DNA from: Polyangiales bacterium
GTDB lineage: Bacteria; Myxococcota_A; Polyangia; Polyangiales; Ga0077539
Assembly (NCBI GenBank): GCA_044229975.1
Contig: JBGARZ010000002.1
Coordinates: forward strand, 1,017,125-1,081,124
Length of the DNA stretch: 64,000 nt
Direction of reading: 5' to 3'
Below the pieces are notes generated by a model, which had not been told where the DNA came from, did no database searches, and saw only the letters and a list, made by a program, of their open reading frames with translations. This document shows, one piece after another, positions 1 to 16,849 of the stretch (position 1 is the first letter of the stretch; each line of letters begins with the position of its first letter). A program made the position numbers and the translations under genes.

Positions 1-639
1 CACGCCGCGCTCGCCAACGCCGCCGTCGATGTCTTCGAGGCCACCTTCGACCCGGCCGCGATCACCCTCGCGCGCACGCTCCTCGACGCCGTGCTCGCAC
101 GCTTCGTCGACGCCGACACCGGCGCGCTGTGCTTCTCCCCCGTCGACGCCGAGGTGGTGCTCTACCGCGCCAACGACGCCTACGACCACGCCTACCCTGG
201 CGGCGTCGGGCTCGCGCTCGAAGCCCTCCTGCGCGTCGCGACGCTCACCGGCCACGCGCCCTACCGCTCCGTCGCCGAGCGCGCCCTCGCACTCTACGCC
301 GCATCCGCGAGAGACAACCCTCTCGCCATGGGAACGGTGCTGCGCGCCGCCGACCGCGCGACCCGCGGCGCCGTCGAGGTGATCGTCGTAGGCGACCCCG
401 CGCGCGAAGACACGCGGGCGCTGCTCTCGGTGGCGCGATCGTTCTTCGTGCCGCACCGCACGCTGGTGTGCGCGCCCGACGAGGCGACCGCCATGGCGAT
501 GGGCATCGACCCCGAGCTGCTGCGCGGTCGAAGCACCGGCGCGAACGGAGCGCCCATGGCCTATGTGTGCCGCGGCACGACCTGCCAGTCGCCGGTCGGT
601 GACGCCGCGGGGCTCACCGCGACGCTGCGCCGGGCGTAG
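1..639 (+). CDS. C-terminal part of thioredoxin-domain protein, YyaL/SSP411 (DUF255) family; 5' end outside the window
   Basis: Frame is open from base 1 (HAALANAAVDVFEATFD...). It contains D-x-A-x-P-G-G (DHAYPGG) and the terminal AYVCRGTTCQSPV motif typical of this family. Confidence 0.8.
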   Translation, partial: HAALANAAVDVFEATFDPAAITLARTLLDAVLARFVDADTGALCFSPVDAEVVLYRANDAYDHAYPGGVGLALEALLRVATLTGHAPYRSVAERALALYAASARDNPLAMGTVLRAADRATRGAVEVIVVGDPAREDTRALLSVARSFFVPHRTLVCAPDEATAMAMGIDPELLRGRSTGANGAPMAYVCRGTTCQSPVGDAAGLTATLRRA

Positions 640-761
640 GCCCGCAACCGCGGCAAAACGAGGGGAAACGCGGGCTCGCGCGGGCTATGGCCTCGCTGTG
701 GGAATGCGTCTATCTTCCGCCGCCCCGTACGACCCGTAGCGAAGGGGATGGAGATTCATCG

Positions 762-2759
762 ATGACCGAGACCGTTGACGCCGCCGCGATCCGCCGCGCG
801 CTCGATCAGAGCCGAGGACAGCGCACCCAGATCACCCGCGGAGCGCCGCTCCCCATCGACACGGCCCATGTGGTCGGCGCGTGCCCCAACTGCGGGCACC
901 TGGGCGCGACGATCCTTGGGTTCCCCGATCCCCCGTACGCGGGGCCGCAGGGCAAGCCGCGCTACCGCAACGCCAAGGAGCTCAACACCTTCGTCGAGGA
1001 GCTGTTCAAGAAGCCCCCTCCGCTCCCGGCCAACGAAGACCCCTCCGAGCCGTCGAAGAACCCGCAGCAGGCTCCGTTCTGGAAGGGCCTCTGCAAGTGC
1101 GGCGCGAAGATCATGCCCCCGCAGCCCGACCCCAAGACGGGCGAGATGGTCGCTGAGCCCGGCGCCACGCCGCGGCAGGTGTGCGGCGTTCGCTTCATCA
1201 AGGCGATGCCGGGCTCCGGCGCCGAGCTGGTCATCGAGGCCCTCGCGGGCGGTGACGGCGGCGTTCCGTACACCGACGGCGTGGTCATCAAGTCGAAGCT
1301 CCTGCGCGCGCCGCTCGACGGCGTCGAGACCGTGGCCTCGGACGAGGTCGACGACGAGAGCATCGAGAAGACCTTCGGCCGCCCGCTCACGCTGGCCAAG
1401 CAGTGGAAGGGCGTGCTCGACGCGGCCGCGAAGGGCGAGGAGTCCATCGCGGAGGTGGAGCCCGGCTACTGGGTCTGGGCCGGCCCCAAGGACGACGCGG
1501 GCCTGGAGCAGCGCGTGAAGGACCTCATCGGCGAGGACAAGCAGAAGGCGGCGTTTCCGCTGGCGATGCTCCCGCAGATGGCCCCGATGCCGCAGGGCCC
1601 GGCGTTCCCGCAGTGGGCCTTCGAGCACGCCGACGCGATCATGAAGGGCGAGATGCGCGCGGGCGTGGTGATGGACCAGGCCGTGACGCGCAAGCTGCTC
1701 CAGGGGCAGCTGGAGCGCGGCGGCCTCGGGTGGACGGAGCAGAACGAGGGCGCGGTGCTCATCGCCTCGGCCGGAGAGCTCCTGTGGCCGATGGAGGTGC
1801 CGATCGTGGCGCTCGGCGCGGCCCACCTCGGGTGGTACCTCGGCGAGACGACGGCGGCGGCGGTGGGCGAGACCATGGCGCGCATCACCGAGGTGAAGCG
1901 CTTCGTCGACACGGCGCGCGCCGAGCGGCCGGAGATGACCTTCGCGGTGCAGGGCACGCAGATGATCCCCAAGCGCGCCGACGGCACCGCGGGCCGGGCG
2001 CTCAACCTGATGGACATGCCCTTCCGCATGCCGCCGGGGAGCAAGGACTTCAAGCGCGAGCTGCGCTTCGCGTGCGACGAGCTGCCGAAGAACCTCGACC
2101 CGTCGCGGTGGTGTCCGTGCGGCGACAAGGCGTGGGTCTGCGCGCGCATCTTCCCGGCCCGCGTGGTCGAGCAGTTCAAGCAGGCGACGCAGGGCAAGAG
2201 CCCGAAGATCATCGAGGCGTGGAACGACGCTCTCCTGGTCGCGGTCATCTCCGACGACCGGCACGTGCGCATCCCGACGCAGGAGGAGCTCGAAGGCTCC
2301 GGCCTCAAGGGCGACGCCTTCGACCGCCGCCTCGCCGAAGAACTCCCCAACAACATCTTCGCCGTCGACGTCTCGATGCACGAGGACAAGAACCAGAAGC
2401 GCGCACTGCTGGCCTTTGGTCCGCTCGTGGCGAGCGTGGTCATCAACGACCACCTCATCAGCGCGCTGCACGGCGCCTGCGGCAAGCCGCTGCGGGGCGA
2501 CGAGGTCTCGGCCGTCGTCACCACCCCCAACGTGATCTGCCTCCACGAGCCGGGCTTCGACGACGACCGCCTGGAGCAGGTGCTCGACATGGGCGCCGCC
2601 ATGGACGGCCTCCCCGCCGACGTGAAGCCGCCCTTCGACCTCTCCTGGGACGTGTCGCTCACGGCCGCTCCGGTGGGCAAGTTCGTCAACCTCAACCCGG
2701 CCCCTCCCGGCCAGGGTCAGCCCCCGCCGCAGCAGGCCAACGCCCCGCGCGGTCGGTGA
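762..2759 (+). CDS. Hypothetical protein with several Cys clusters (possible Zn binding)
   Basis: Long ORF with strong GC3 codon bias; GGAG lies before ATG 762. Motifs CPNCGH, CKCG and CPCG..C; no family recognised. Confidence 0.75.
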   Translation: MTETVDAAAIRRALDQSRGQRTQITRGAPLPIDTAHVVGACPNCGHLGATILGFPDPPYAGPQGKPRYRNAKELNTFVEELFKKPPPLPANEDPSEPSKNPQQAPFWKGLCKCGAKIMPPQPDPKTGEMVAEPGATPRQVCGVRFIKAMPGSGAELVIEALAGGDGGVPYTDGVVIKSKLLRAPLDGVETVASDEVDDESIEKTFGRPLTLAKQWKGVLDAAAKGEESIAEVEPGYWVWAGPKDDAGLEQRVKDLIGEDKQKAAFPLAMLPQMAPMPQGPAFPQWAFEHADAIMKGEMRAGVVMDQAVTRKLLQGQLERGGLGWTEQNEGAVLIASAGELLWPMEVPIVALGAAHLGWYLGETTAAAVGETMARITEVKRFVDTARAERPEMTFAVQGTQMIPKRADGTAGRALNLMDMPFRMPPGSKDFKRELRFACDELPKNLDPSRWCPCGDKAWVCARIFPARVVEQFKQATQGKSPKIIEAWNDALLVAVISDDRHVRIPTQEELEGSGLKGDAFDRRLAEELPNNIFAVDVSMHEDKNQKRALLAFGPLVASVVINDHLISALHGACGKPLRGDEVSAVVTTPNVICLHEPGFDDDRLEQVLDMGAAMDGLPADVKPPFDLSWDVSLTAAPVGKFVNLNPAPPGQGQPPPQQANAPRGR

Positions 2760-2778
2760 TACCCTCCCGCGCGCTCCG

Positions 2779-3933
2779 ATGATCGACAGCGCGCGACTCC
2801 GCTCCCACTACACAGCGTTCCTGCGACCCGGTCGGGTGCTCCTCACGGGGCACTCGCACCAGGCGTGGCCCGACGTCGCCCGCGACGCGCTCACCGAGTG
2901 CTTCGACGCCGCCGCCCTCCACGTCGACGACAAGTGGGGCGCGGCCTTCGCCGTCGCCGACGAGCTGCGCGCGGGCCTCGCGTCCGACCTCGGCGGCCAC
3001 GCCCGCGACTACGCGCTCGACCTCAACACCCACGCGCTGGTGACCCGCTTTCTCAGCGCGCTTCCGTGGTCGAAGCGCCGGCACCTCGTCACCACCGCGG
3101 GCGAGTTTCACACCCTGCACCGCCAGCTCCGGCGGCTCGCCGAAGAGGGCATCCGGGTCACCTTCGTCGACCCCTCACCCGTCGACTCGCTCGCCGCCCG
3201 CCTCGCCGCCGCGGTCACCGCCGACACCGCCGCGGTGCTCTGCTCGTCGGTGCTCTTCGAGACCTCCAGCGTGGTGCCCGACCTCGGCGACCTCGCCGCC
3301 CGCTGCCGCGCGCTCGCGGTGCCGTTGCTCGTCGACGCCTATCACCACTTCGCGGTCGTCCCCTTCGATCGCGCGGCCCTCGGCGACGAGGTCTTCGTGC
3401 TCGGTGGCGGGTACAAGTACGCGCAGTGGGGCGAAGGCGTGTGCTTCCTCGGAGCGCCCCCTGCCAACGACCTGCGCCCGGTGCTCACCGGATGGTTCGC
3501 CGACTTCGCGCACCTCGCCGACCGTCGAACCGACGCGCCCGTGCAGTACGGCGACGACGGCGCGGCGCGCTTCGCCGGCGCCACCTACGACCCGGCGAGC
3601 CACTACCGGGCCCGCGCGGTGCGGCGCTTCTTCGACGCCCAGGGCCTCACCATCGACGCGCGCCGAGAGGTCTCCCTTGCACAGACGGCGCACCTCCTCG
3701 CGGCCGCCGACCGGCTCTCGCTCGACGTGGCGACCCCGCGCGCCGACGCTCGTCGGGGAGGCTTCGTGGCGGTGCGGGTCAACGACGCGAGCGACGCAGT
3801 CGAGGCGCTGAAGGGCCACGGCATCTGGACAGACTCGCGCGGCGACCTGCTGCGACTGGGCCCCGCGCCCTACTCCACATTGGACGAACTCGATCAGGCC
3901 ATGGAGGCTCTGGGCGCGTGGACACGGCGATGA
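2779..3933 (+). CDS. PLP-dependent class V aminotransferase-fold enzyme, kynureninase-like
   Basis: GHSH near the N-terminus, EFHT, LLVDAYH, GGGYKY (PLP lysine), GWFA, RGGF, DSRGDLLRLGPAPY. Confidence 0.75.
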   Translation: MIDSARLRSHYTAFLRPGRVLLTGHSHQAWPDVARDALTECFDAAALHVDDKWGAAFAVADELRAGLASDLGGHARDYALDLNTHALVTRFLSALPWSKRRHLVTTAGEFHTLHRQLRRLAEEGIRVTFVDPSPVDSLAARLAAAVTADTAAVLCSSVLFETSSVVPDLGDLAARCRALAVPLLVDAYHHFAVVPFDRAALGDEVFVLGGGYKYAQWGEGVCFLGAPPANDLRPVLTGWFADFAHLADRRTDAPVQYGDDGAARFAGATYDPASHYRARAVRRFFDAQGLTIDARREVSLAQTAHLLAAADRLSLDVATPRADARRGGFVAVRVNDASDAVEALKGHGIWTDSRGDLLRLGPAPYSTLDELDQAMEALGAWTRR

Positions 3934-4448
3934 AGCGAGCGACGACGTTCTGGCTGATGGCGACCCTGGGGTGCGCGAGCACGCAGACGACAACGGCGCC
4001 CGCCGCGCCTGCGAGCGACGAGGCCCTCGCGCGGGTGGCGGCGGTGCACGGGGGCGCCGGGCCCTTCGCCGTAGCGGGATACCGCATGGGGGCGCGGGCG
4101 CTGACGGAGCTGTCGCTGCCGCGCGGGAGCTTCGACGTCGACGTGGAGCACACCTCGCCGCCGGAGGTGCAGTTCAGTTGCATCGCGGACGGGGTGGCCG
4201 CGGCGACGGGGGCGAGCCTCGGGAGGCTCAACCTCCGGCGCGTCGACACCACCGACGGGACGACCCACACCCAGGTGCGCGACCGCCGCAGCGGTCGGGC
4301 CGTGGTGCTGCGGTTGACGCCGGGCTTCCTGGCGCGGTACCGCGACGTACCGATGCCGGGGCTCGGCGCGGCGGGTCGCACGGTGCTCGACCTGCGCGAC
4401 GAGGAGATCTTCGAGGTGGTGCCAGAGCCGCGAGAGGTGACGCGATGA
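3930..4448 (+). CDS. FmdE-family protein with lipoprotein-like signal peptide
   Basis: ATGA overlap with the upstream stop. VHGGAGPFAVAGYRMG and SCIADGVAAATGAS match the FmdE pattern; N-terminus MKRATTFWLMATLGC. Confidence 0.65.
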   Translation: MKRATTFWLMATLGCASTQTTTAPAAPASDEALARVAAVHGGAGPFAVAGYRMGARALTELSLPRGSFDVDVEHTSPPEVQFSCIADGVAAATGASLGRLNLRRVDTTDGTTHTQVRDRRSGRAVVLRLTPGFLARYRDVPMPGLGAAGRTVLDLRDEEIFEVVPEPREVTR

Positions 4449-4972
4449 CCGACGCCGTACCGTTCAAGCTGAGCCGCGAGAGCAACATCCGCGTCGACCG
4501 CGAGGGGCACATCTGGCACGAGGGCGAACGGGTGCTGCACCCGGGCCTCGCGCGCACCCTCGCCCGCTGGATCGACATCGAGCCGAGCGGCCGCTACGTG
4601 ATGCGCAACGCGCTCGACTGGTGCTTCATCACCGTCGACCACACGCCCCTGGTCGTGCGCTCGGTGACGCTGGAGACCGACCCCGCGATGCGCGTCGAGG
4701 TCGAGCTCTCCGACGACACCACCGAGAAGCTCGACCTGCGCACCGTACAGGTCGACCCCGATGGAGTGGTCTACGCCCACGTCCGTGGGGGCAAGCTCCT
4801 GGCGCGCTTCGACCGGCAGCCGTCGTTCAAGTTTCTGGAGCACGTCGAGGCCGACGAGAAGGGCATCATGATCTTCCGTTTGGGTACGCTCATGGTCCGC
4901 ATCGCCCCGCTGGAGCGCGGCGAGACCCTCGTCCCCCCTGCCCCGCCGCGCAGCCAGGCCAGCCGCGGCTGA
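4445..4972 (+). CDS. DUF1285-like protein
   Basis: ATGA overlap; IRVDREGHIWHEG...FITVDHTPLVV...YAHVRGGKLLARFDR. Confidence 0.65.
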   Translation: MTDAVPFKLSRESNIRVDREGHIWHEGERVLHPGLARTLARWIDIEPSGRYVMRNALDWCFITVDHTPLVVRSVTLETDPAMRVEVELSDDTTEKLDLRTVQVDPDGVVYAHVRGGKLLARFDRQPSFKFLEHVEADEKGIMIFRLGTLMVRIAPLERGETLVPPAPPRSQASRG

Positions 4973-9877: not shown

Positions 9878-9886
9878 GGGACGGCG

Positions 9887-12007
9887 CTACCGGCTGAAGG
9901 TGATGTTGCGGGCCGAGTACGCCGACCAGTAGAGCTGCGACAGGTTGGTGTAGCGAAACTCGTTGAAGGCGAAGCCCGCGACGCGGAAGGCCGTGAGGTA
10001 CAGGTAGAACGACTGCCCCGCCGGCAGGTCGCGCAGCCCCATGACCCCGGAGAGGTCGGGGAAGCGGAACGTTCGCTCGGTGGCGTTGGCGTAGGTCTGC
10101 CAGTACTGGGTGTCGCCGCTGAGCGAGAGGTTGAACATGTCCGGGTCGTTGCCGCGCTGGGTGAAGCGCACGGTGCGATCGGACGGCAGCCTGCCCCCGT
10201 CGGTCGGGACATCGAACTCGGGGATACCCACCCAGTTGTCGATGCGGACGGTGTCGTCGGGCGACGTGATGCCGCCGACGACGACGGCGCTCGATGGAGG
10301 CGAGAGGTACTCAGAGCCATCGGCGTTGCGCCCGCCGCTCACGCCGTAGGTGGCGCGCACGATGAGCCGCGCGTCGGCGAGCGGACCGCTGAAGGGCGGC
10401 AGCGCGACGAGGTTGTAGTTGTCGCCCACGTCACGGCCGTACGCGGTGATCTCCGAGCGGGCGATGACCCCTTCGCCGCCGAGGTTGAGGAAGCCTTCGA
10501 CGCGCAGTCGGTTGGGCGCATCGCGCGTGACCGGCGGGAGGTTGGCGAGGCGCACCTCGGTCTGGTGATCGAGGGGGATGTTCATGTTGACCACCACGTT
10601 GGCGATCATGGCGCGGGGCGAGCCGAGCACGCCGCGCGCGACGCCCATGATGTACGGGGTGAAGCGGGTGCGGTCGCGGTTGTTCTCGATGCCCGCGATG
10701 GCGTAGACGGCCATCGACCCATTGCGCGTGTTGATGGTGAAGGGGTAGCCGCGACCGCCATAACCGGGCGTGACGACCTCGACGACCTGGCCGCCATCCG
10801 AGGGCTGGTTGGGGGTCGAGAGGATGTCCGTGGTGGTCACGAAGACCCGCGCCACGCGGCGCTCTCCCGCACGGGGTTCGGGGACGTTGCGCCACGGGTT
10901 GGGCGCAAACTCGTTGGGGCCTTCCCACACGAGCTCGCCCGAGACCTGGGTGCCGAAGGTCCCGCGGCCGGGGGTGTTGTCCGGGGGCATGCCCTCGGCG
11001 ATGCACGCCGGGATCATCTGCGCGTAGAGGTAGAGCGACACGTTGCGCGCGTCGAAGACCTGCACCGTCTGGCTGTTGAAGCAGTGCGCGCTGATGGTCA
11101 TCGTGACGGGCCCGCGCAGCTCGGGGAAGCCCACCGACGCGCGGCCGCGCTCGTTGGTGCGCGTCGAGCGCGGCGGCGCCACGAGGGGGTCGTCGCCGAG
11201 GAAGACCAGCGCGTTGGGGATGGGGTCGCCCGTGTTGCCCGCGAGCACGGTGACGTTGATGTTGCCGAGGATGGGGCCGCCACCGAGACCGCCGCGCGCG
11301 GCCTCGGCGCTGTCGGTGTAGTTGAAGGCGTCGGCGACGGCGATGCGCTCGTCGCCAGTGACGACGGTGACATCGACGCGCGCCTCGGGGTGGGCGGGCG
11401 TGAGGCAGGTGAGCAGCTCGGGGCCACCGACGCGGATGCCGGTACAGGGCAGGCCGTCGAGGGTGACGGCGCTGGCGTCGGTGAAGTGGGTTCCGAGGCC
11501 GCGGATGGTGAGGAGCGTGTTGCCCGCTGGCGTGCCATCGGGCGGCTCGGTGGCGATGGCGTCGTAGCGGTAGCCCATCGGGAGCGTCGTGGTGCGGCCG
11601 TCGACCTGCACGGTGACATCAACGGCGCCCGCGCGGCCCGCCGGGGGCTTCACGGTGAGGCGGCCCTGGTCGTTGGCGACGGTGTCGGCAGGCTGCACGA
11701 GGTTGCCGCCGAAGGTGACGACGGACTCCGGGGTGAAGTTGGAGCCACGCACGACGACGGAGTTGCCCCCGGTGAAGGGACCGTGGTCGGGCACGACGCC
11801 GACGACGACGGGGTTGGTGTTGCGCGGGACGTCCGGGCGGGCCGCGTCGCGGGCTTCGGTGGAGACGTCGGCCTGCACGATGCGCGGGACATCGACGCCG
11901 GCATCGACGGCGGGCGCGGGCGCGGTGAAGGGGTCGTCGGCACAGCCAGCGACGAGCACAGACGCGAGGAGGGCGACGGAGCGCGCGCGGGGCCGGGGAG
12001 CGTTCAT
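9887..12007 (-). CDS. Lipoprotein with two IPT/TIG domains
   Basis: Lipobox LVAGC; VVPDHGPFTGGNSVVVRGSNF and PPDGTPAGNTLLTIRGLG are IPT/TIG-like repeats. Confidence 0.8.
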   Translation of the reverse strand: MNAPRPRARSVALLASVLVAGCADDPFTAPAPAVDAGVDVPRIVQADVSTEARDAARPDVPRNTNPVVVGVVPDHGPFTGGNSVVVRGSNFTPESVVTFGGNLVQPADTVANDQGRLTVKPPAGRAGAVDVTVQVDGRTTTLPMGYRYDAIATEPPDGTPAGNTLLTIRGLGTHFTDASAVTLDGLPCTGIRVGGPELLTCLTPAHPEARVDVTVVTGDERIAVADAFNYTDSAEAARGGLGGGPILGNINVTVLAGNTGDPIPNALVFLGDDPLVAPPRSTRTNERGRASVGFPELRGPVTMTISAHCFNSQTVQVFDARNVSLYLYAQMIPACIAEGMPPDNTPGRGTFGTQVSGELVWEGPNEFAPNPWRNVPEPRAGERRVARVFVTTTDILSTPNQPSDGGQVVEVVTPGYGGRGYPFTINTRNGSMAVYAIAGIENNRDRTRFTPYIMGVARGVLGSPRAMIANVVVNMNIPLDHQTEVRLANLPPVTRDAPNRLRVEGFLNLGGEGVIARSEITAYGRDVGDNYNLVALPPFSGPLADARLIVRATYGVSGGRNADGSEYLSPPSSAVVVGGITSPDDTVRIDNWVGIPEFDVPTDGGRLPSDRTVRFTQRGNDPDMFNLSLSGDTQYWQTYANATERTFRFPDLSGVMGLRDLPAGQSFYLYLTAFRVAGFAFNEFRYTNLSQLYWSAYSARNITFSR

Positions 12008-12084
12008 GGGGCGAGTATCGGGTGGAGGGGGCAGCGGTGCAATCGGGCGGATCGACCGCGGTGGGCGTGGGTCAGGGGCATGGC

Positions 12085-12269
12085 GTGGACTTGGTCGACG
12101 GTAGGGATCGAACACCCGATGGGCCCCGTGGACTCGGTCGACGGTAGGGATCGAACACCCGACGGGCCCCGTGGACTCGGTCGACGGTGGGGACCGAACA
12201 CTTGATGGGTGGCGTGGACTCGGTCGACGGTGACGAGGGGACATCCGATGGGTGGCGTGGACTCGGTCG
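12085..12269. repeat. 43-bp tandem repeat, four full units plus one partial unit
   Basis: GTGGAC(T/C-variant)..GGTCG starts at 12085, 12128, 12171, 12214 and 12257, an exact 43-bp period. Unit 2 = GTGGACTCGGTCGACGGTAGGGATCGAACACCCGACGGGCCCC. Confidence 0.95.
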
Positions 12270-12353
12270 CCCCCCTTCGATGGATGTTCGAGGGGTGCCT
12301 TCGACCGGGGACAATCCCACCGAAGACATCGGCTACCCTGCGATCACAGCGCG

Positions 12354-13123
12354 ATGAACTTCCTGTTCTGGAATCTGGGGAAGAGACCGATCGAGGAGCT
12401 GCTCGCTACGGCGGTTCACGAGCACGACGTCGATGTGATCGTGCTCGCGGAGTGTGAGACTCCGGTCGGGAGATTGTTGCAGTCGCTCAATCAGGATCGA
12501 TCACGCCGATACGTACGAGCGGACCTCCTGCCGGGTCGAGTGCAGGTGTTCTCGCGCCTTCAGGCGGGCAGCATCCAACCTGTACGCAACACGCCCAACG
12601 CCGTGATCCATCGTGTCTCACCAAGCTCTGGTGAGGCGTTCTTGTTGGTCGGAGTACACTTCCCCAGCCGTCGACACCACCATCCCGACGACCTGAGCGA
12701 TCTAGCTGGGCGCCTGGCTCGGACCATTCGGAACGCCGAAAAGCGCGAGGGTCACGCTCGGACGCTGGTAGTCGGCGACTTCAATCTCGACCCGTTCGAT
12801 CGCGGTCTTGCGGGGAGCGAGGGTCTGCACGCGGTCATGGATCGGCGCATCGCCCAGCGTGGCTCTCGGACGATGCAGTGGCTCCAGCGTCCGTTCTTCT
12901 ACAACCCGATGTGGAGCCGACTTGGCGACGCGAGCGTCGGCCCTCCGGGAACCCACTACTACGCTCGCAGCTCCGCGCTCGCCCTCTTCTGGCACACCTT
13001 CGATCAGGTGCTGATGCGCCCTCAAATGATCGATCAGTTCGACCCGATGTCGCTTGCGGTGTTGACGTCCGTTGGGGATACCTCCCTGGTCGACGAAGTC
13101 GGCGTACCAGACGCGTTGGTAGG
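12354..13123 (+). pseudogene. Endonuclease/exonuclease/phosphatase (EEP) family gene, 5' part, interrupted by the insertion element
   Basis: FLFWNL, VIVLAE, GVHFPS, LVVGDFNLDP and TFDQVL are present. The terminal SDH motif is missing here and reappears after the element. Confidence 0.88.
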
Positions 13124-13205
13124 TGCTCTTGCCGCACAACTTCCATCGGTTTGAGGACCTGAAACTCCGGACTTCGGAGACCTCCTCAAATCGCTGGAGG
13201 AGACG

Positions 13206-14624
13206 ATGGACGAGAAGCGAGATGAGCAACGGCTGCCACGCAGCGTAGGGCGGCGATACACAGCCGAGGAGCGCGCGGTGGTGCTCGCCGATGTGCCGGC
13301 GTTGGGCTGCAAGCCCGCGGCGGCGAAGCATGGCGTTCCGGCCCCCAACGTCTTCCGCTGGGCGAAGGCTGCCGGGGTCACGAAGGCGTCGAGCAGCGAC
13401 GAGACGCCCACGGCGCCCGCGGCGCCCGCCGCGCCGCCGCCGCCAGTGGTGATCGCGAAGGCGAAGGCGGCACCCGCGCGGCGCAAGTCCACCGCGTCGG
13501 CGAAGGCGGCGCCGCCGTCGTCGGCGGGCAACAAGTCGCCTGACACCACGGGCCTCCCCGCCAAAGCCGTCGCAACGCCCGCGGCGAAGCCGAAGACCGT
13601 CGCGCGTTCGTACACGCCGTCGGAGCGCGCGGAGATCCTCGAGTACGCCGCCGAGAAGAGCGTCACCGAGTCGGCGACGAAGTTCAAAGTGAGCCGGTTC
13701 TCGATCTACGAGTGGCAGCGCAAGGTCAGCGCCGCGGCGAAGGGCGAGGGCCCGTCGCCGACGAGCGGTGCGGGCGTCAAGGAGATCGAGGCGCGGCGCG
13801 ACAAGGAGATCCTCGACGAGTGGAGCCGGCACCCCGGCCTCGGGCCGAGCCAGATCCGCAACCAGCTCCGTCGCAAGAGCGTGAAGGTCTCCGTCCACAC
13901 GGCGCGGCGGGTGATGGAGGAGGCGGGCTATCGGCCGCCGAAGGTCGCGCGGCATCCGCACATCCAACGCTTCGAGGCCGTGCGCCCGAACCACCTCTGG
14001 CACCTCGATTTCGTGCATCGCAACATCCACCGCGCGAACACGTTCACGTTGATCCTGATCGACGACCACTCGCGCTTCGTCGTGGGCCACGGGGTGGACG
14101 ACGCGGAGCGCGCGGACATGGTGATCGGGACCTTCGAGCGCGCCGTCGCGCGGTACGGCAAGCCCGAGATGGTGATGCACGACCGCGGCGCGGCGTTCTG
14201 GGCGTGGAACGGCATCTCGCGCTTCACGGCGCTGCTCACGGAGCTCGGCATCGACCAGCTCGTCGCCGTGGACAAGGAGCACAACGGCAAGGTCGAGGTC
14301 TTCAACGCCAACCTCGCGAAGGAGCTGTTCGACGTGCAGCGCTTCGCCGATGTGGGCGAGATGCGGCGGCGGCTCGACACGCACATGCACTGGTACAATC
14401 ACGGCCGCACGCACCACGCGCTGGGCGGCCTGCTGGTGCCCGCGGACCGCTACTACGGCCGCGTGGACGAGGTGCTCGCGCGCATCGAAGCCGGCGCGGG
14501 GCGCGACGTCGGCGACGGCATCGACCTGCGCGCCCGATCGCTGGATCTCTTCAAGGTCACCAGCCGCGACGGCGTGCCCGAGGTGTGGCTCATGGGCCGA
14601 AAGCTGATCGAGCTGCGCCCCTGA
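13206..14624 (+). CDS. DDE transposase (integrase core, IS481-like) with N-terminal HTH modules
   Basis: GGAGGAG RBS. Two HTH-like modules (RRYTAEER..., RSYTPSER...YEW); PNHLWHLDF, IDDHSRF, MHDRG, NGKVEVFN, WYNHGRTHHALGG. Confidence 0.92.
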   Translation: MDEKRDEQRLPRSVGRRYTAEERAVVLADVPALGCKPAAAKHGVPAPNVFRWAKAAGVTKASSSDETPTAPAAPAAPPPPVVIAKAKAAPARRKSTASAKAAPPSSAGNKSPDTTGLPAKAVATPAAKPKTVARSYTPSERAEILEYAAEKSVTESATKFKVSRFSIYEWQRKVSAAAKGEGPSPTSGAGVKEIEARRDKEILDEWSRHPGLGPSQIRNQLRRKSVKVSVHTARRVMEEAGYRPPKVARHPHIQRFEAVRPNHLWHLDFVHRNIHRANTFTLILIDDHSRFVVGHGVDDAERADMVIGTFERAVARYGKPEMVMHDRGAAFWAWNGISRFTALLTELGIDQLVAVDKEHNGKVEVFNANLAKELFDVQRFADVGEMRRRLDTHMHWYNHGRTHHALGGLLVPADRYYGRVDEVLARIEAGAGRDVGDGIDLRARSLDLFKVTSRDGVPEVWLMGRKLIELRP

Positions 14625-14702
14625 AAGGAAAGCGGTCTCCCGCCCTGGTCGTGTATTGCGAAGTTTCCAGACACCGCAACGCACCACCCAGACAAGGAGA
14701 CC

Positions 14703-16598
14703 GTGCGCTCCGACCTACCAGAGTCCGGCGAGTCCGTCTCGCCGCTCCTGATCTCCGCCCTGCTTCTTGCGTCCGCCGAGCACGCTCGGCGGGTCTCGCT
14801 CGCGCACCCGTCCGTCGGTGAGATCCTCGCGGCCACCGGCGCCACGCGCTCGCGGGCGTATGAGTTGCGCGACGCGCTCGTGGCCTCGCTGCCGTCGTTG
14901 CAACGCCCTGCGGGGCGCCCAGCGGTCGCGGAGACGGCACCATGCGGCGGCCCGTGCGAGGAGCTGCTCTCCATCTCGCGGGCGATGCTGCGCTTCACCT
15001 TCGAGCATCCTGGGTGCGTCGGGGGTGACCGGCGGCGGCACTACACCGATGCCTTCCGGCACCGCGTGCTGGAGCTGCACGCCGCGCATGAGGATCTTCC
15101 TCTCGCACGCTTCGCGGAGGCCGTGGAGGTGCCGCTGGAGACCGTCGAAGACTGGCTGCGTGCCGGAGCGATCACCGCGCCACCCGACGAGCCGGTGCGC
15201 GACGTGGAGAACGACACGAGCGCCACGCGGCTCACGCATCTCGAGACCGTGCTCGCGGAGTGGAAGACCTGGCGCGGCGGCTTCTCGGACTTCTGCGCGT
15301 ACTTGAAAGCCGACTGCCGCGTCCCGTACGGCCCCACGCTGGTGAGCTCCATCCTCGCCGCGCGCGGGATTCGCACGCCGGCTCGGCGCGAGGGACGATC
15401 GCCCGACGAGCGTGCGCTGCGCGGTGCCTTCGAGGTCTTCTTCCCGGACGCGCAGTGGGTCGGCGACGGCTCGCAGGTTGCGCTCGAACTCTCCGGCGCG
15501 CGCCACGTCTTCAACCTCGAGTTGCTGGTCGATCCGTACAGCGGCGCCTTCGTCGGCGCGTCGCTCGGCGACCAGGAGGACAGCGAAGCCGTCGCCCTCG
15601 CGATGGCGGACGCGAGGGCGACGACGAGCGCCGCGCCGCCGCTGCCGCTCGCGGTGCTCCTGGACAACAAGCCGAGCAACCACGCGCCTGAGGTGGATCG
15701 TGCGCTCGATGGTGCCGAGCGCATTCGCGCGACCCCCGAGAGGCCGCAGAACAAGGCGCACATCGAAGGTGGATTCGGGCTCTTCCAGCAGACCGCGCCG
15801 CCGCTGCTCGTCGAGGGAGAGGACGCGCGCTCGCTCGCACGATCGATCCTCCGGCTGGTCCTCACGACCTTTTTCCGCACGATCAATCATCGTCCGCGCA
15901 AGGATCGCGACGGTCGCTCGCGCGTCACGATCCACGGGGAGACGCCGACGCCGGAGCAGATCGCCGAGGCGCGCAAGGCGCTCGCGGAGCGGTGCCGCCG
16001 CCAGGAGCTCGCGCGACAGACGCTCGAGGCGCGGCAGGATCCCGAGGTGCGCGCGTACCTCGATCGGTCCTTCGAGCGGCTCGCGCTGCTCGACCCGGAG
16101 CGCAGCCTCCGCATCGCCCTCGCGCGCTATCCGCTCGACGCGATCGTCGATGGCGTCGCGATCTTCGAGGGCAAGCGCGCCACCGGAACGATCGCTGCCG
16201 ACACCGACGCGCGCTACCTGCTCGGCATCGTCAGGAACCTCGCCGCCCAGAACGAGGGACAACGAATCTGCGAGGCGCTGCTCCGCGAGCGGATGGCCCA
16301 GCGCGACCGCATGCTCGCGTCGCTGCAGACCGAGCGTGTGCGCATCGAGCAGATCCTCCCGGTCGTCGGGGACCGCCTGAAGGCCTTCGCCGACCGCGCC
16401 TGCGAGATCGACGCGGTGCTCGACCGGCGCTTCTGGCTGCTCGTCCTCATCGACACCGTGCGCGCCCAGCCGCGGGCGCAACACGCCAGCCTGACCGAGA
16501 ACCTCTCGCGGAGGATTCACGCCACGTTTCGCATCACGCCCCGCGAGCGGGCGGACGCCGTGCGATTCATCGTCGATCGGGTCGTGGCGCTGCACTGA
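14703..16598 (+). CDS. Second DDE/integrase-core protein with a long helical C-terminal extension
   Basis: AAGGAG lies before GTG 14703. HTH-like RRHYTDAFRHRVL...TVEDWL; PDAQWVGDG, VDPYSG, LLDNKPSN, PQNKAHIEGGFG, NHRPR. Confidence 0.8.
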   Translation: MRSDLPESGESVSPLLISALLLASAEHARRVSLAHPSVGEILAATGATRSRAYELRDALVASLPSLQRPAGRPAVAETAPCGGPCEELLSISRAMLRFTFEHPGCVGGDRRRHYTDAFRHRVLELHAAHEDLPLARFAEAVEVPLETVEDWLRAGAITAPPDEPVRDVENDTSATRLTHLETVLAEWKTWRGGFSDFCAYLKADCRVPYGPTLVSSILAARGIRTPARREGRSPDERALRGAFEVFFPDAQWVGDGSQVALELSGARHVFNLELLVDPYSGAFVGASLGDQEDSEAVALAMADARATTSAAPPLPLAVLLDNKPSNHAPEVDRALDGAERIRATPERPQNKAHIEGGFGLFQQTAPPLLVEGEDARSLARSILRLVLTTFFRTINHRPRKDRDGRSRVTIHGETPTPEQIAEARKALAERCRRQELARQTLEARQDPEVRAYLDRSFERLALLDPERSLRIALARYPLDAIVDGVAIFEGKRATGTIAADTDARYLLGIVRNLAAQNEGQRICEALLRERMAQRDRMLASLQTERVRIEQILPVVGDRLKAFADRACEIDAVLDRRFWLLVLIDTVRAQPRAQHASLTENLSRRIHATFRITPRERADAVRFIVDRVVALH

Positions 16599-16776
16599 CG
16601 GCGAGGCGCCCGCACACCGTGGGCGACCCCGACGGCGACGGGCTCGACGGCGATCGCTGCGACGCCAAAACCAACGAGCGCCCGAGCGTCAGCCGGTCAC
16701 GCCAAGGCGCTCGCCAGGCCGCGCCAACGGACGTCCGCCATTTCTTGTTGGTAGGTGTTTGACAAGCGCAGGTAGG

Positions 16777-16849
16777 CTCCGATCATCTGCCCCTGCGATT
16801 CAGCCTGAGCTTTCCAACAACCGGCCATCAGGAGATACTTCGACCATGA
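16777..16849 (+). pseudogene. 3' remnant of the interrupted EEP gene
   Basis: Reads (G)SDHLPLRFSLSFPTTGHQEILRP-stop in the restored frame; SDHLP is the canonical EEP catalytic motif. Confidence 0.88.

Follow-up and report, generated by a model that had tools for sequence, protein, structure and literature searches.

A 3647-bp insertion sequence that encodes two different DDE transposases within one pair of ends was identified in the window (the whole stretch of 64,000 nucleotides that was analysed). That the unit is real and contains two conserved DDE genes can be considered practically certain, and both proteins are very probably catalytic, as predicted from their conserved triads. To our knowledge, the described DDE insertion sequences possess one catalytic transposase, and their helpers are ATPases, DNA-binding proteins or proteins with other nuclease folds. 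Two conserved DDE sites in a mobile family thus suggest a division of labour that is absent from the literature searched. The preferred reading, with a probability of roughly 0.45, is a copy-out/paste-in pathway in which the steps are divided between ORF1 and ORF2.

The element and its two transposases

The following features were defined.

12252-13123, + strand: 5' part of the host gene (endonuclease/exonuclease/phosphatase family)
13118-13123, + strand: left copy of the target duplication GGTAGG (NNTANN in the family target logo)
13124-16770: two-DDE insertion sequence, 3647 bp, three identical full copies in the genome
13124-13172, + strand: left end (IRL), TGC tip, TTGCC..CA..CC box at 1-21
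13206-14624, + strand: ORF1, IS481-like DDE transposase, 472 aa
14633-14703, no strand assigned: imperfect hairpin of about 65-70 nt, closing over the ORF2 RBS and the first base of its start codon
14703-16598, + strand: ORF2, second DDE transposase, 631 aa
16731-16770, - strand: right end (IRR), TGCGsTTGTCAA..CCTACC box, second box AAA-N3-CGGAC at 33
16771-16776, + strand: right copy of GGTAGG
16777-16849, + strand: 3' tail of the host gene with the SDH motif

The left end TGCTCTTGCCGCACAACTTCC (from 13124) and the reverse-complemented right end TGCGCTTGTCAAACACCTACC (from 16770) match at 15/21 positions; the imperfect ends and the perfect 6-bp duplication of the original prediction were both reproduced. 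The interrupted host gene matches PF03372 (E 1e-8), and its frame picks up again past the element (SDHLPL...RP and a stop codon), in line with the restorable target gene that had been proposed. Three full copies of the element are 100% identical over 3647 bp, and each is flanked by its own duplication (ggtagg, agtagg and gctaca, all centred on TA); the hexamer cgtagc is common to two contig-end pieces of the element (C29). TA is found at positions 3-4 in 6/6 distinct flank hexamers, at a genome TA frequency of 0.008. An independent run also yielded a contig of 3646 bp that covers exactly 13124-16770. The element is an autonomous insertion sequence and was active recently; the three identical copies, each with a fresh duplication, bear out the claim that the whole 3.6 kb moved as a unit.

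Each gene has the ribosome-binding site, HTH modules and acidic triad that were originally assigned to it. ORF1 is preceded by GGAGG and consists of an HTH, a low-complexity linker, two further HTH, the DDE core and a short C-terminal beta region. Its triad is D268/D326/E364 (D-37-E; codons at 14007, 14181 and 14295), and was kept in 47/47 intact loci picked by ORF2. The best score was obtained with the IS481 model NF033577 (156 bits, E 1e-45; below the cut-off of 224), with lower scores for NF033516 of IS3 (128 bits; cut-off 160) and NF033594 of IS1202 (36 bits; cut-off 250). In a quick tree the ORF1 core forms its own clade, and its fork with the IS481 groups was not split. The closest matches in a plasmid-database search showed about 30% identity.

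ORF2 is preceded by AGGAG and displays three HTH-like modules, a DDE core and a helical tail of about 215 aa, in agreement with the roughly 200 extra C-terminal residues noted initially. The triad D255/D321/E355 (D-33-E; codons at 15465, 15663 and 15765) is near-invariant among representatives of 26-71% identity (140/140, 138/138 and 134/135), and was kept in 42/42 intact loci picked by ORF1. The three catalytic positions belong to the seven best-conserved residues of ORF2, and align with the triads of IS481, IS3 and IS1202. A Pfam rve match was obtained for 51/75 family members; searches with ORF2 of the present copy gave no match in Pfam or to NF033577, and its top NCBIfam match was the IS3 model NF033516 (27.6 bits; cut-off 160). 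The best eight Foldseek rows were TnsB, IstA or integrases (E 0.002-0.02), none reaching E 0.001 or better, and the best integrase Z score (7.5) was lower than that of generic helical matches. Confidence in the structure model of ORF2 is low over residues 238-256, among them D255. The Glu motif of ORF2 is divergent (NKAHIEGGFG vs NGKVEVFNA), and ORF2 lies on a long branch. For the tail, generic helical structures were the only structural matches, and an Atlas search gave no usable match; a suspected likeness to DnaD was not borne out by Pfam. ORF2 evolves faster than ORF1: its tree is 2.9 times longer, and dN/dS in the three closest pairs was 0.04-0.12 for ORF1 and 0.21-0.34 for ORF2, close pairs being used because the all-pair medians (0.26 and 0.54) are inflated by saturation.

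Both genes lie on the same strand with a gap of 78 bp, in which the hairpin folds with z scores of -4.5 (sense) and -4.6 (antisense). Single folds of intergenic stretches gave z below -2 in 20/44 (sense) and 21/44 (antisense) cases, and covariation was found in a model built from 37 stretches hand-picked for having the stem. When 33 intergenic stretches were taken without selection and aligned with MAFFT, RNAalifold yielded no consensus structure on either strand, and the longest perfect stem was scarcely different between intergenic stretches (median 7) and coding controls (median 6). The only Rfam match was attributed to chance. RNA-library contigs of relatives cross the ORF1-ORF2 boundary (two runs of one study); they were not taken as expression, as DNA may be present in the libraries. 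The hairpin, or an antisense RNA, may throttle translation of ORF2.

Gene pairing, ends and target sites in the family

The family is widespread and active in uncultured bacteria. Among 7,997 scored candidates, 1,253 were relatives of ORF2, mostly unnamed or labelled hypothetical, and 380 clusters were obtained at 50% identity (E < 1e-30). No ORF2 match was found among 72,556 plasmids, and no relative was found in viral contigs. As anticipated, both genes occur together within the same ends: ORF1 precedes ORF2 in 68/78 loci picked by ORF2, and ORF2 follows ORF1 in 71/79 loci picked by ORF1 (ORF2 is present in L187). The loci without the partner gene are mostly contig ends or broken copies. Trees of both proteins are correlated, not identical (Mantel rho 0.62), with 10/41 and 20/53 supported splits in conflict. 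The element length ranges from 3356 to 4365 bp in 40 genome loci with both ends, and a perfect duplication was detected in just 5/11 copies for which 1 kb of sequence was available to the left and to the right.

One conserved IRL/IRR pair surrounds both genes. The TGC tip is present in 98/99 distinct IRRs, while the 110 distinct IRLs carry TGC (84), TGT (20) or TGA (6); overall, IRR is better conserved than IRL. The second box AAA-N3-CGGAC was also found in IRL, near position 44 (44-45), about one turn deeper than in IRR (33). IRR carries an outward-facing TTGACA (16759-16764).

The family target is two-fold symmetric and IS481-like. Left and mirrored right flanks showed no difference at 16/16 positions, and GTAG and CTAC were found at a ratio of 56:50, i.e. 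with no orientation bias. CTAG was observed 26 times for 2.8 expected, NCTAGN being enriched, and a G stands 3 bp outside the duplication, on either side, in 105/204 cases. NCTAGN is given as the target of an IS481 member in the available text of PMC2516522. The idea that ORF2 acts in target selection found no support, given that the target resembles that of IS481 and that the protein with IS481 likeness is ORF1.

Proposed pathway and alternatives

In the copy-out/paste-in reading, ORF2 would likely connect the right end with a position lying 6 bp beyond the left end, giving a circle with an IRR-6 bp-IRL junction as the putative intermediate, and ORF1 would likely integrate this junction at an NNTANN target. 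The symmetric NCTAGN-type target and the IS481 likeness of ORF1 speak for integration by an IS481-like core. Both the assignment of the steps and any physical ORF1-ORF2 complex are what we infer. Among the 184 loci scanned, two such junctions were detected (IRR-TATAGA-IRL in L056 and IRR-GGTAAC-IRL in L067). The available parts of PMC3299598 describe IS3-type junctions whose spacer has the length of the target duplication, and IRR alone serving as donor in IS2. Copy-out is favoured because the spacer length equals the duplication length, as in these junctions, and because IRR is more conserved than IRL, as for the IRR-only donor of IS2. Alternatively, a copy could have inserted into a duplication already present, as a duplication is a target in its own right, or the two junctions could be artefacts of assembly. 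The pattern was not found beyond these two loci over 40 genomes, and contigs of four DNA runs, which drop rare forms, contained no circle joint. A single junction match in a viral contig was dismissed as chance; insertion into the IRR of another copy was also rejected, no flank scoring as IRR. The 6-bp spacer forms no canonical junction promoter, as read from the sequence.

An unlikely, still serious, alternative is a mixed transpososome in which both ends are cut and joined in a single step, one of them by ORF1 and the other by ORF2. It draws on the conservation of both triads, on the conserved difference between IRL and IRR, where the deeper second box of IRL fits end-specific proteins as well, and on the HTH-HTH-DDE layout common to both proteins (profile comparison 96%, E 2e-9). 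In a weak local alignment, however, the two cores share only about 23%, and from such a pair a mirror-symmetric target without bias is not expected, so that the original suggestion of one protein per divergent end is weakened. Moreover, IRR scores 29.5 on the IRL profile, for 29.2 of the true IRL, and therefore one common binding motif is assigned to both ends. The test of paralogy between ORF1 and ORF2 gave an AU p of 0.59. A co-fold of ORF1 (128-472) with ORF2 (84-631) scored 0.00 and was given no weight either way. In Tn7, TnsA cuts the other strand from TnsB. A similar cut-and-paste, in which ORF1 would make the 3' cuts and join the target while ORF2 cut the other strands to release the element, is considered improbable. 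It would account for an obligatory second nuclease together with the symmetric IS481-type target, and the divergent Glu motif of ORF2 on its long branch is in its favour, but the junctions and the stronger IRR conservation are signs of copy-out, and TnsA, the counterpart of ORF2, has a fold that is not DDE.

Slightly more doubtful is the proposal that ORF1 does all chemistry and that ORF2 is structural, activating or repressing, similarly to OrfA or PgmL, its acidic residues being retained for metal or DNA binding. The faster evolution of ORF2 and the apparent hiding of its translation by the hairpin would be in line with this, and transposase partners without catalysis are known; according to the available text of PMC6143343, these partners have no conserved catalytic site, whereas the catalytic positions of ORF2 are among its best conserved. 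A nested or adjacent pair of independent elements is highly implausible. Other DNA replaces ORF2 in 3/79 loci picked by ORF1 (L135, L160 and L162), and 2/78 loci picked by ORF2 have at least 640 bp upstream and no ORF1 (L049 and L066). Against this, no right end was found behind ORF1 in the three former loci (score 3 or less), no clear inner ends were detected (best scores 11.9 and 10.5, for 13-40 in called ends), and the whole 3647 bp was copied with fresh duplications, which upholds the prediction of one end pair around two DDE genes.

With divided copy-out/paste-in as the preferred reading, the separately mutable triads would open a standing question, the organisation of the asymmetric circle-forming and the symmetric integration steps, to direct tests, and a stand-alone integrator, whose target is simple and centred on TA, could be of use as a tool.

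Comparison with known transposition systems

The element is not a member of IS481, IS3 or IS21; the likenesses below follow the available parts of the cited papers. The element resembles IS481 (NF033577; ISLxc2, PMC2516522; PMC10045372) in ORF1, which is closest to its transposases, in the 6-bp duplication, the enriched CTAG-centred target and the short imperfect ends. In contrast, the IS481 members compared have one ORF in about 1.0-1.2 kb (PMC2516522, PMC3196728), here 3.6 kb with two DDE genes, and IS481 ends begin with 5'-TGT (10.1101/2022.12.17.520857), here TGC. ORF1 also differs from IS481 transposases by an additional N-terminal HTH and linker and by its score below the family cut-off. 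With IS3 (IS2, IS911) the element shares the best NCBIfam match of ORF2, HTH_Tnp_1-type modules, putative abutted ends with a spacer of duplication length, an outward -35 in IRR and a more conserved right end (PMC3299598), but IS3 has a single DDE domain and an OrfA/OrfB frameshift, instead of two full separate genes without frameshift. IS21 (IstA/IstB, PMC11208146) resembles it as a two-gene transposition machine with repeated binding boxes in the ends; its partner is the AAA+ ATPase IstB, and here a second DDE protein. For 75 ORF2 members, 25 Pfam families were listed, none of them an ATPase family. Among solved structures, those of IstA and TnsB came closest in fold. Tn7 is a heteromeric transposition machine of TnsA and TnsB, in which the partner TnsA is a non-DDE nuclease, not a second DDE protein. 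In IS1202, which has a single transposase, a Gln follows the Glu by seven residues, while the conserved Gln of ORF2 is at +8, and IS1202 cores form a separate clade in the DDE core tree. Paramecium PiggyMac and PgmL likewise require several distinct transposases of one superfamily together; as far as the available text of PMC6143343 goes, these are domesticated and eukaryotic, with partners lacking a conserved catalytic site, whereas here both triads are kept and the element is mobile.

The suggestion of a possibly undescribed IS type is supported: the element stands outside IS481, IS3 and IS21, and no described family with the two-DDE layout was found in the literature searched, ISfinder lying outside the comparison. 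Papers worded 'two DDE transposases' or 'two transposases' concern other things, as far as their available text goes. A sister family (L278-L288) has two DDE genes and a small separate HTH gene, and the present family's ends were not detected in it. Its first DDE protein is IS481-like and closest to ORF1 (HHalign 100%, E 6e-48), and the second groups with ORF2 (SH-aLRT 90). By HHalign, the ORF2 N-terminus matches the small HTH protein (70%, E 4e-5), while the second DDE protein is matched by the remainder (97.6%, E 3e-12), so ORF2 appears to resemble an OrfAB-like fusion of both; in the sister family the HTH gene is unfused and the tail is shorter. Tentatively, the two families may form a clan of bacterial insertion sequences of one ancient origin that divides copy-out/paste-in between two DDE enzymes, an RNA-throttled 'circulariser' (ORF2) and an IS481-like 'integrator' (ORF1), and the fused, duplication-making family and the three-gene sister family would then count as two branches of a new two-catalyst transposon class.

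The element and its copies in the source genome

The ends of the element match at 15 of 21 positions, GGTAGG flanks it on both sides, and two ORFs with acidic triads lie within, all of which bears out the original prediction.

13206-14624, + strand: ORF1, IS481-like DDE transposase, D-37-E triad
14703-16598, + strand: ORF2, second DDE protein, D-33-E triad

The interrupted gene encodes a PF03372 nuclease/phosphatase, the frame of which picks up again downstream with SDHLPL. In the source genome (10.0 Mb, 39 contigs, 93% complete), three full copies are 100% identical and each has a separate 6-bp duplication; four further pieces lie at contig ends. TA occupies positions 3-4 in every flank hexamer. 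A 3646-bp contig from an independent sequencing run covers precisely 13124-16770, with 96 differences. The element is a genuine unit that was recently mobile.

Two of the pieces form both ends of contig C29 (152 kb) and have the single duplication cgtagc in common, while those on C1 and C24 are unpaired. Since both ends of C29 are element ends with the same duplication, this contig probably closes to a circle of about 155 kb via one element copy, perhaps a plasmid. Another copy (L003, G000:C11:434891-438537) is inserted in a CRISPR-like array with a period of 61 bp, at a spacer/repeat boundary with duplication AGTAGG, and the array runs on either side. At window 16759-16786, the outward TTGACA of the right end and host GATCAT form a predicted sigma-70-like hybrid promoter (score 10/12), with the next gene downstream. 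At 9880-12330, a 60-100 bp element occurs as several near-repeats, visible as repeated peptide text, on the flanks of the gene at 9887-12244.

Association and conservation of ORF1 and ORF2

Relatives of ORF2 numbered 1,253 among 7,997 scored candidates, and those of ORF1 2,474. A genome scan by ORF2 alignment confirmed 100 stretches, of which the best 80 yielded 78 retained loci. By record titles, their hosts are mostly environmental MAGs, in which short contigs may be misbinned; with the same reservation, Myxococcota or Deltaproteobacteria and Gemmatimonadota are frequent labels. In 68 loci ORF1 precedes ORF2 in the same orientation, by at most 500 bp in 66. Among the ten others, five begin at a contig edge and three have 218-392 bp upstream; ORF1 is absent upstream in L049, where ORF2 is frameshifted, and in L066. 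In the reverse scan with ORF1, ORF2 followed in 71 of 79 metagenome loci. Of the remaining eight, five stop short, and in three ORF1 is followed by other sequence and by no right end, which would fit truncated copies. A strong ORF1 match was obtained in 28 of 401 genomes of the phylum; of 28 such loci inspected, 15 contain ORF2 (once at 685 bp), and the other 13 are short, partial or of a sister family.

With end profiles trained on 21 loci, IRL was recognised in 48 of the 78 loci and IRR in 60. No inner end scoring like the called ends (13-40; background at most 8.9) was found between the genes: the best values were 11.9, 10.5 in a second set, and 12.5 in a locus carrying a 4.3-kb insert. Each end carries a second box, AAA-N3-CGGAC, at position 44-45 (IRL) or 33 (IRR). 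Extra DNA separates the genes in L028 (a Cys-rich ORF, 1672-2689) and L082 (4.3 kb, 340-4614), and the ORF2 region exceeds its usual length by about 500 bp in L150, L152, L156, L166, L170 and L175.

ORF1 matches rve and IS481 under the family cut-off, and its predicted model matches IstA and TnsB structures. ORF2 of this copy gave no Pfam match; rve was matched by 51 of 75 relatives. The ORF2 model displays an RNase H-like strand/helix order over residues 254-415, its best structural matches being TnsB, IstA and integrases, all short of E 0.001. In alignment, the ORF2 triad coincides with the IS481, IS3 and IS1202 triads. Across 149 representatives (26-71% identity), counted where each site is covered, D255 is conserved in 140/140, D321 in 138/138 and E355 in 134/135. 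All six triad residues are invariant in 90 distinct ORF1/ORF2 pairs without internal stops, also in loci picked by the partner gene. For close pairs, dN/dS was 0.04-0.12 (ORF1) and 0.21-0.34 (ORF2). The two trees correlate with some conflict (rho 0.62, 0/999 permutations as high). By these measures, ORF1 and ORF2 alike are DDE enzymes that evolve under constraint.

Target site and ORF2 start

Left flanks are TA-centred in 43/44 and 76/77 cases in two sets, right flanks in 54/59 and 43/44. In 204 distinct TA-centred flanks, the left mirrors the right at every position and GTAG and CTAC are equally frequent (56:50). CTAG occurred 26 times against 2.8 expected from the source-genome composition, which may not suit every host. 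Three bp beyond the duplication, on either side, G is over-represented. Eleven copies carry 1 kb of flank at either end: five keep a perfect duplication, and four more are still TA-centred left and right, as expected from collapsed repeats or inter-copy rearrangement.

The ORF1-ORF2 intergenic stretch is predicted to fold as a hairpin burying AGGAG and the start of ORF2 (z -4.5). A model of 37 stretches, selected for stem presence, gave 41 sense-strand matches in 100 other loci, 39 of which end within 13 bases of the profile-placed ORF2 start. In the outer stem, all 6 pairs show changes on both sides and 85% are paired (16-47% when slid), in an alignment fitted to the model and containing five opposite-strand duplicates. 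Unselected intergenic alignments gave no consensus fold; the predicted hairpin is therefore not common to every subgroup. A different, shorter hairpin (about 45-50 nt, mostly 10-13 perfect pairs) lies at the ORF2 start in L046, L050, L052, L057, L109, L111, L116, L117 and L136. Folding is more stable for the antisense than for the sense strand in 101/131 intergenic stretches, compared with 138/245 coding controls. This leaves room for an antisense RNA of the kind described for IS200, in which translation is repressed by structure and by antisense RNA alike (PMC4513863).

Proposed mechanism and relation to known families

Abutted IRR and IRL with a 6-bp TA-centred spacer were found in 2 of 184 loci scanned. 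In L067:936-8026 two copies stand head to tail as a tandem dimer, and GGTAAC occurs on each outer side as well as between them. For IS30, formation of both circles and tandem dimers is described (PMC9333248). Junction spacer length is reported to equal duplication length in the IS3 family, with the right end as sole donor in IS2 (PMC3299598), and copy-out/paste-in is described as two steps unlike in symmetry (PMC7780238).

The favoured reading, with a probability of about 0.45, is copy-out/paste-in with its steps split between the two proteins. ORF2 would make the first, asymmetric joint, as suggested by the junctions, the better-conserved IRR and its OrfAB-like build. ORF1 would act as the target-joining enzyme, since an IS481-like protein best explains the symmetric, IS481-type 6-bp target. 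Division of labour by end, with one enzyme on each, is a less probable arrangement of the same two catalysts, and TnsA-like cutting of the second strand is less probable still. A non-catalytic ORF2 appears slightly more doubtful again. That ORF1 and ORF2 are independent elements is very improbable.

Behind the nearest outside relatives of ORF1 lie, in order, a small HTH-helix gene and a second DDE gene.

L278-L288: sister family, genomes G255, G282, G394, G440, G263, G330 and G288

Its first DDE protein matches ORF1 (E 6e-48). The second, with motifs WSEDG / KHDGG / GKxER, matches ORF2 (E 3e-12) about as well as ORF1 (E 2e-11), and groups with ORF2 in a quick 70-core tree (SH-aLRT 90; long branches). 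The small protein weakly resembles the ORF2 N-terminus. The two-DDE layout of both families is likely of single origin.

A full-text literature search, mostly of freely available articles, found no IS described as having a pair of catalytic DDE genes; that a registry entry already exists is rather unlikely. By the defining tests for IS481, IS3, IS21 and IS1202, the element belongs to none of them. It appears to work like an IS481/IS3-type element; its chemistry is already known, and the two-catalyst organisation appears to be new.
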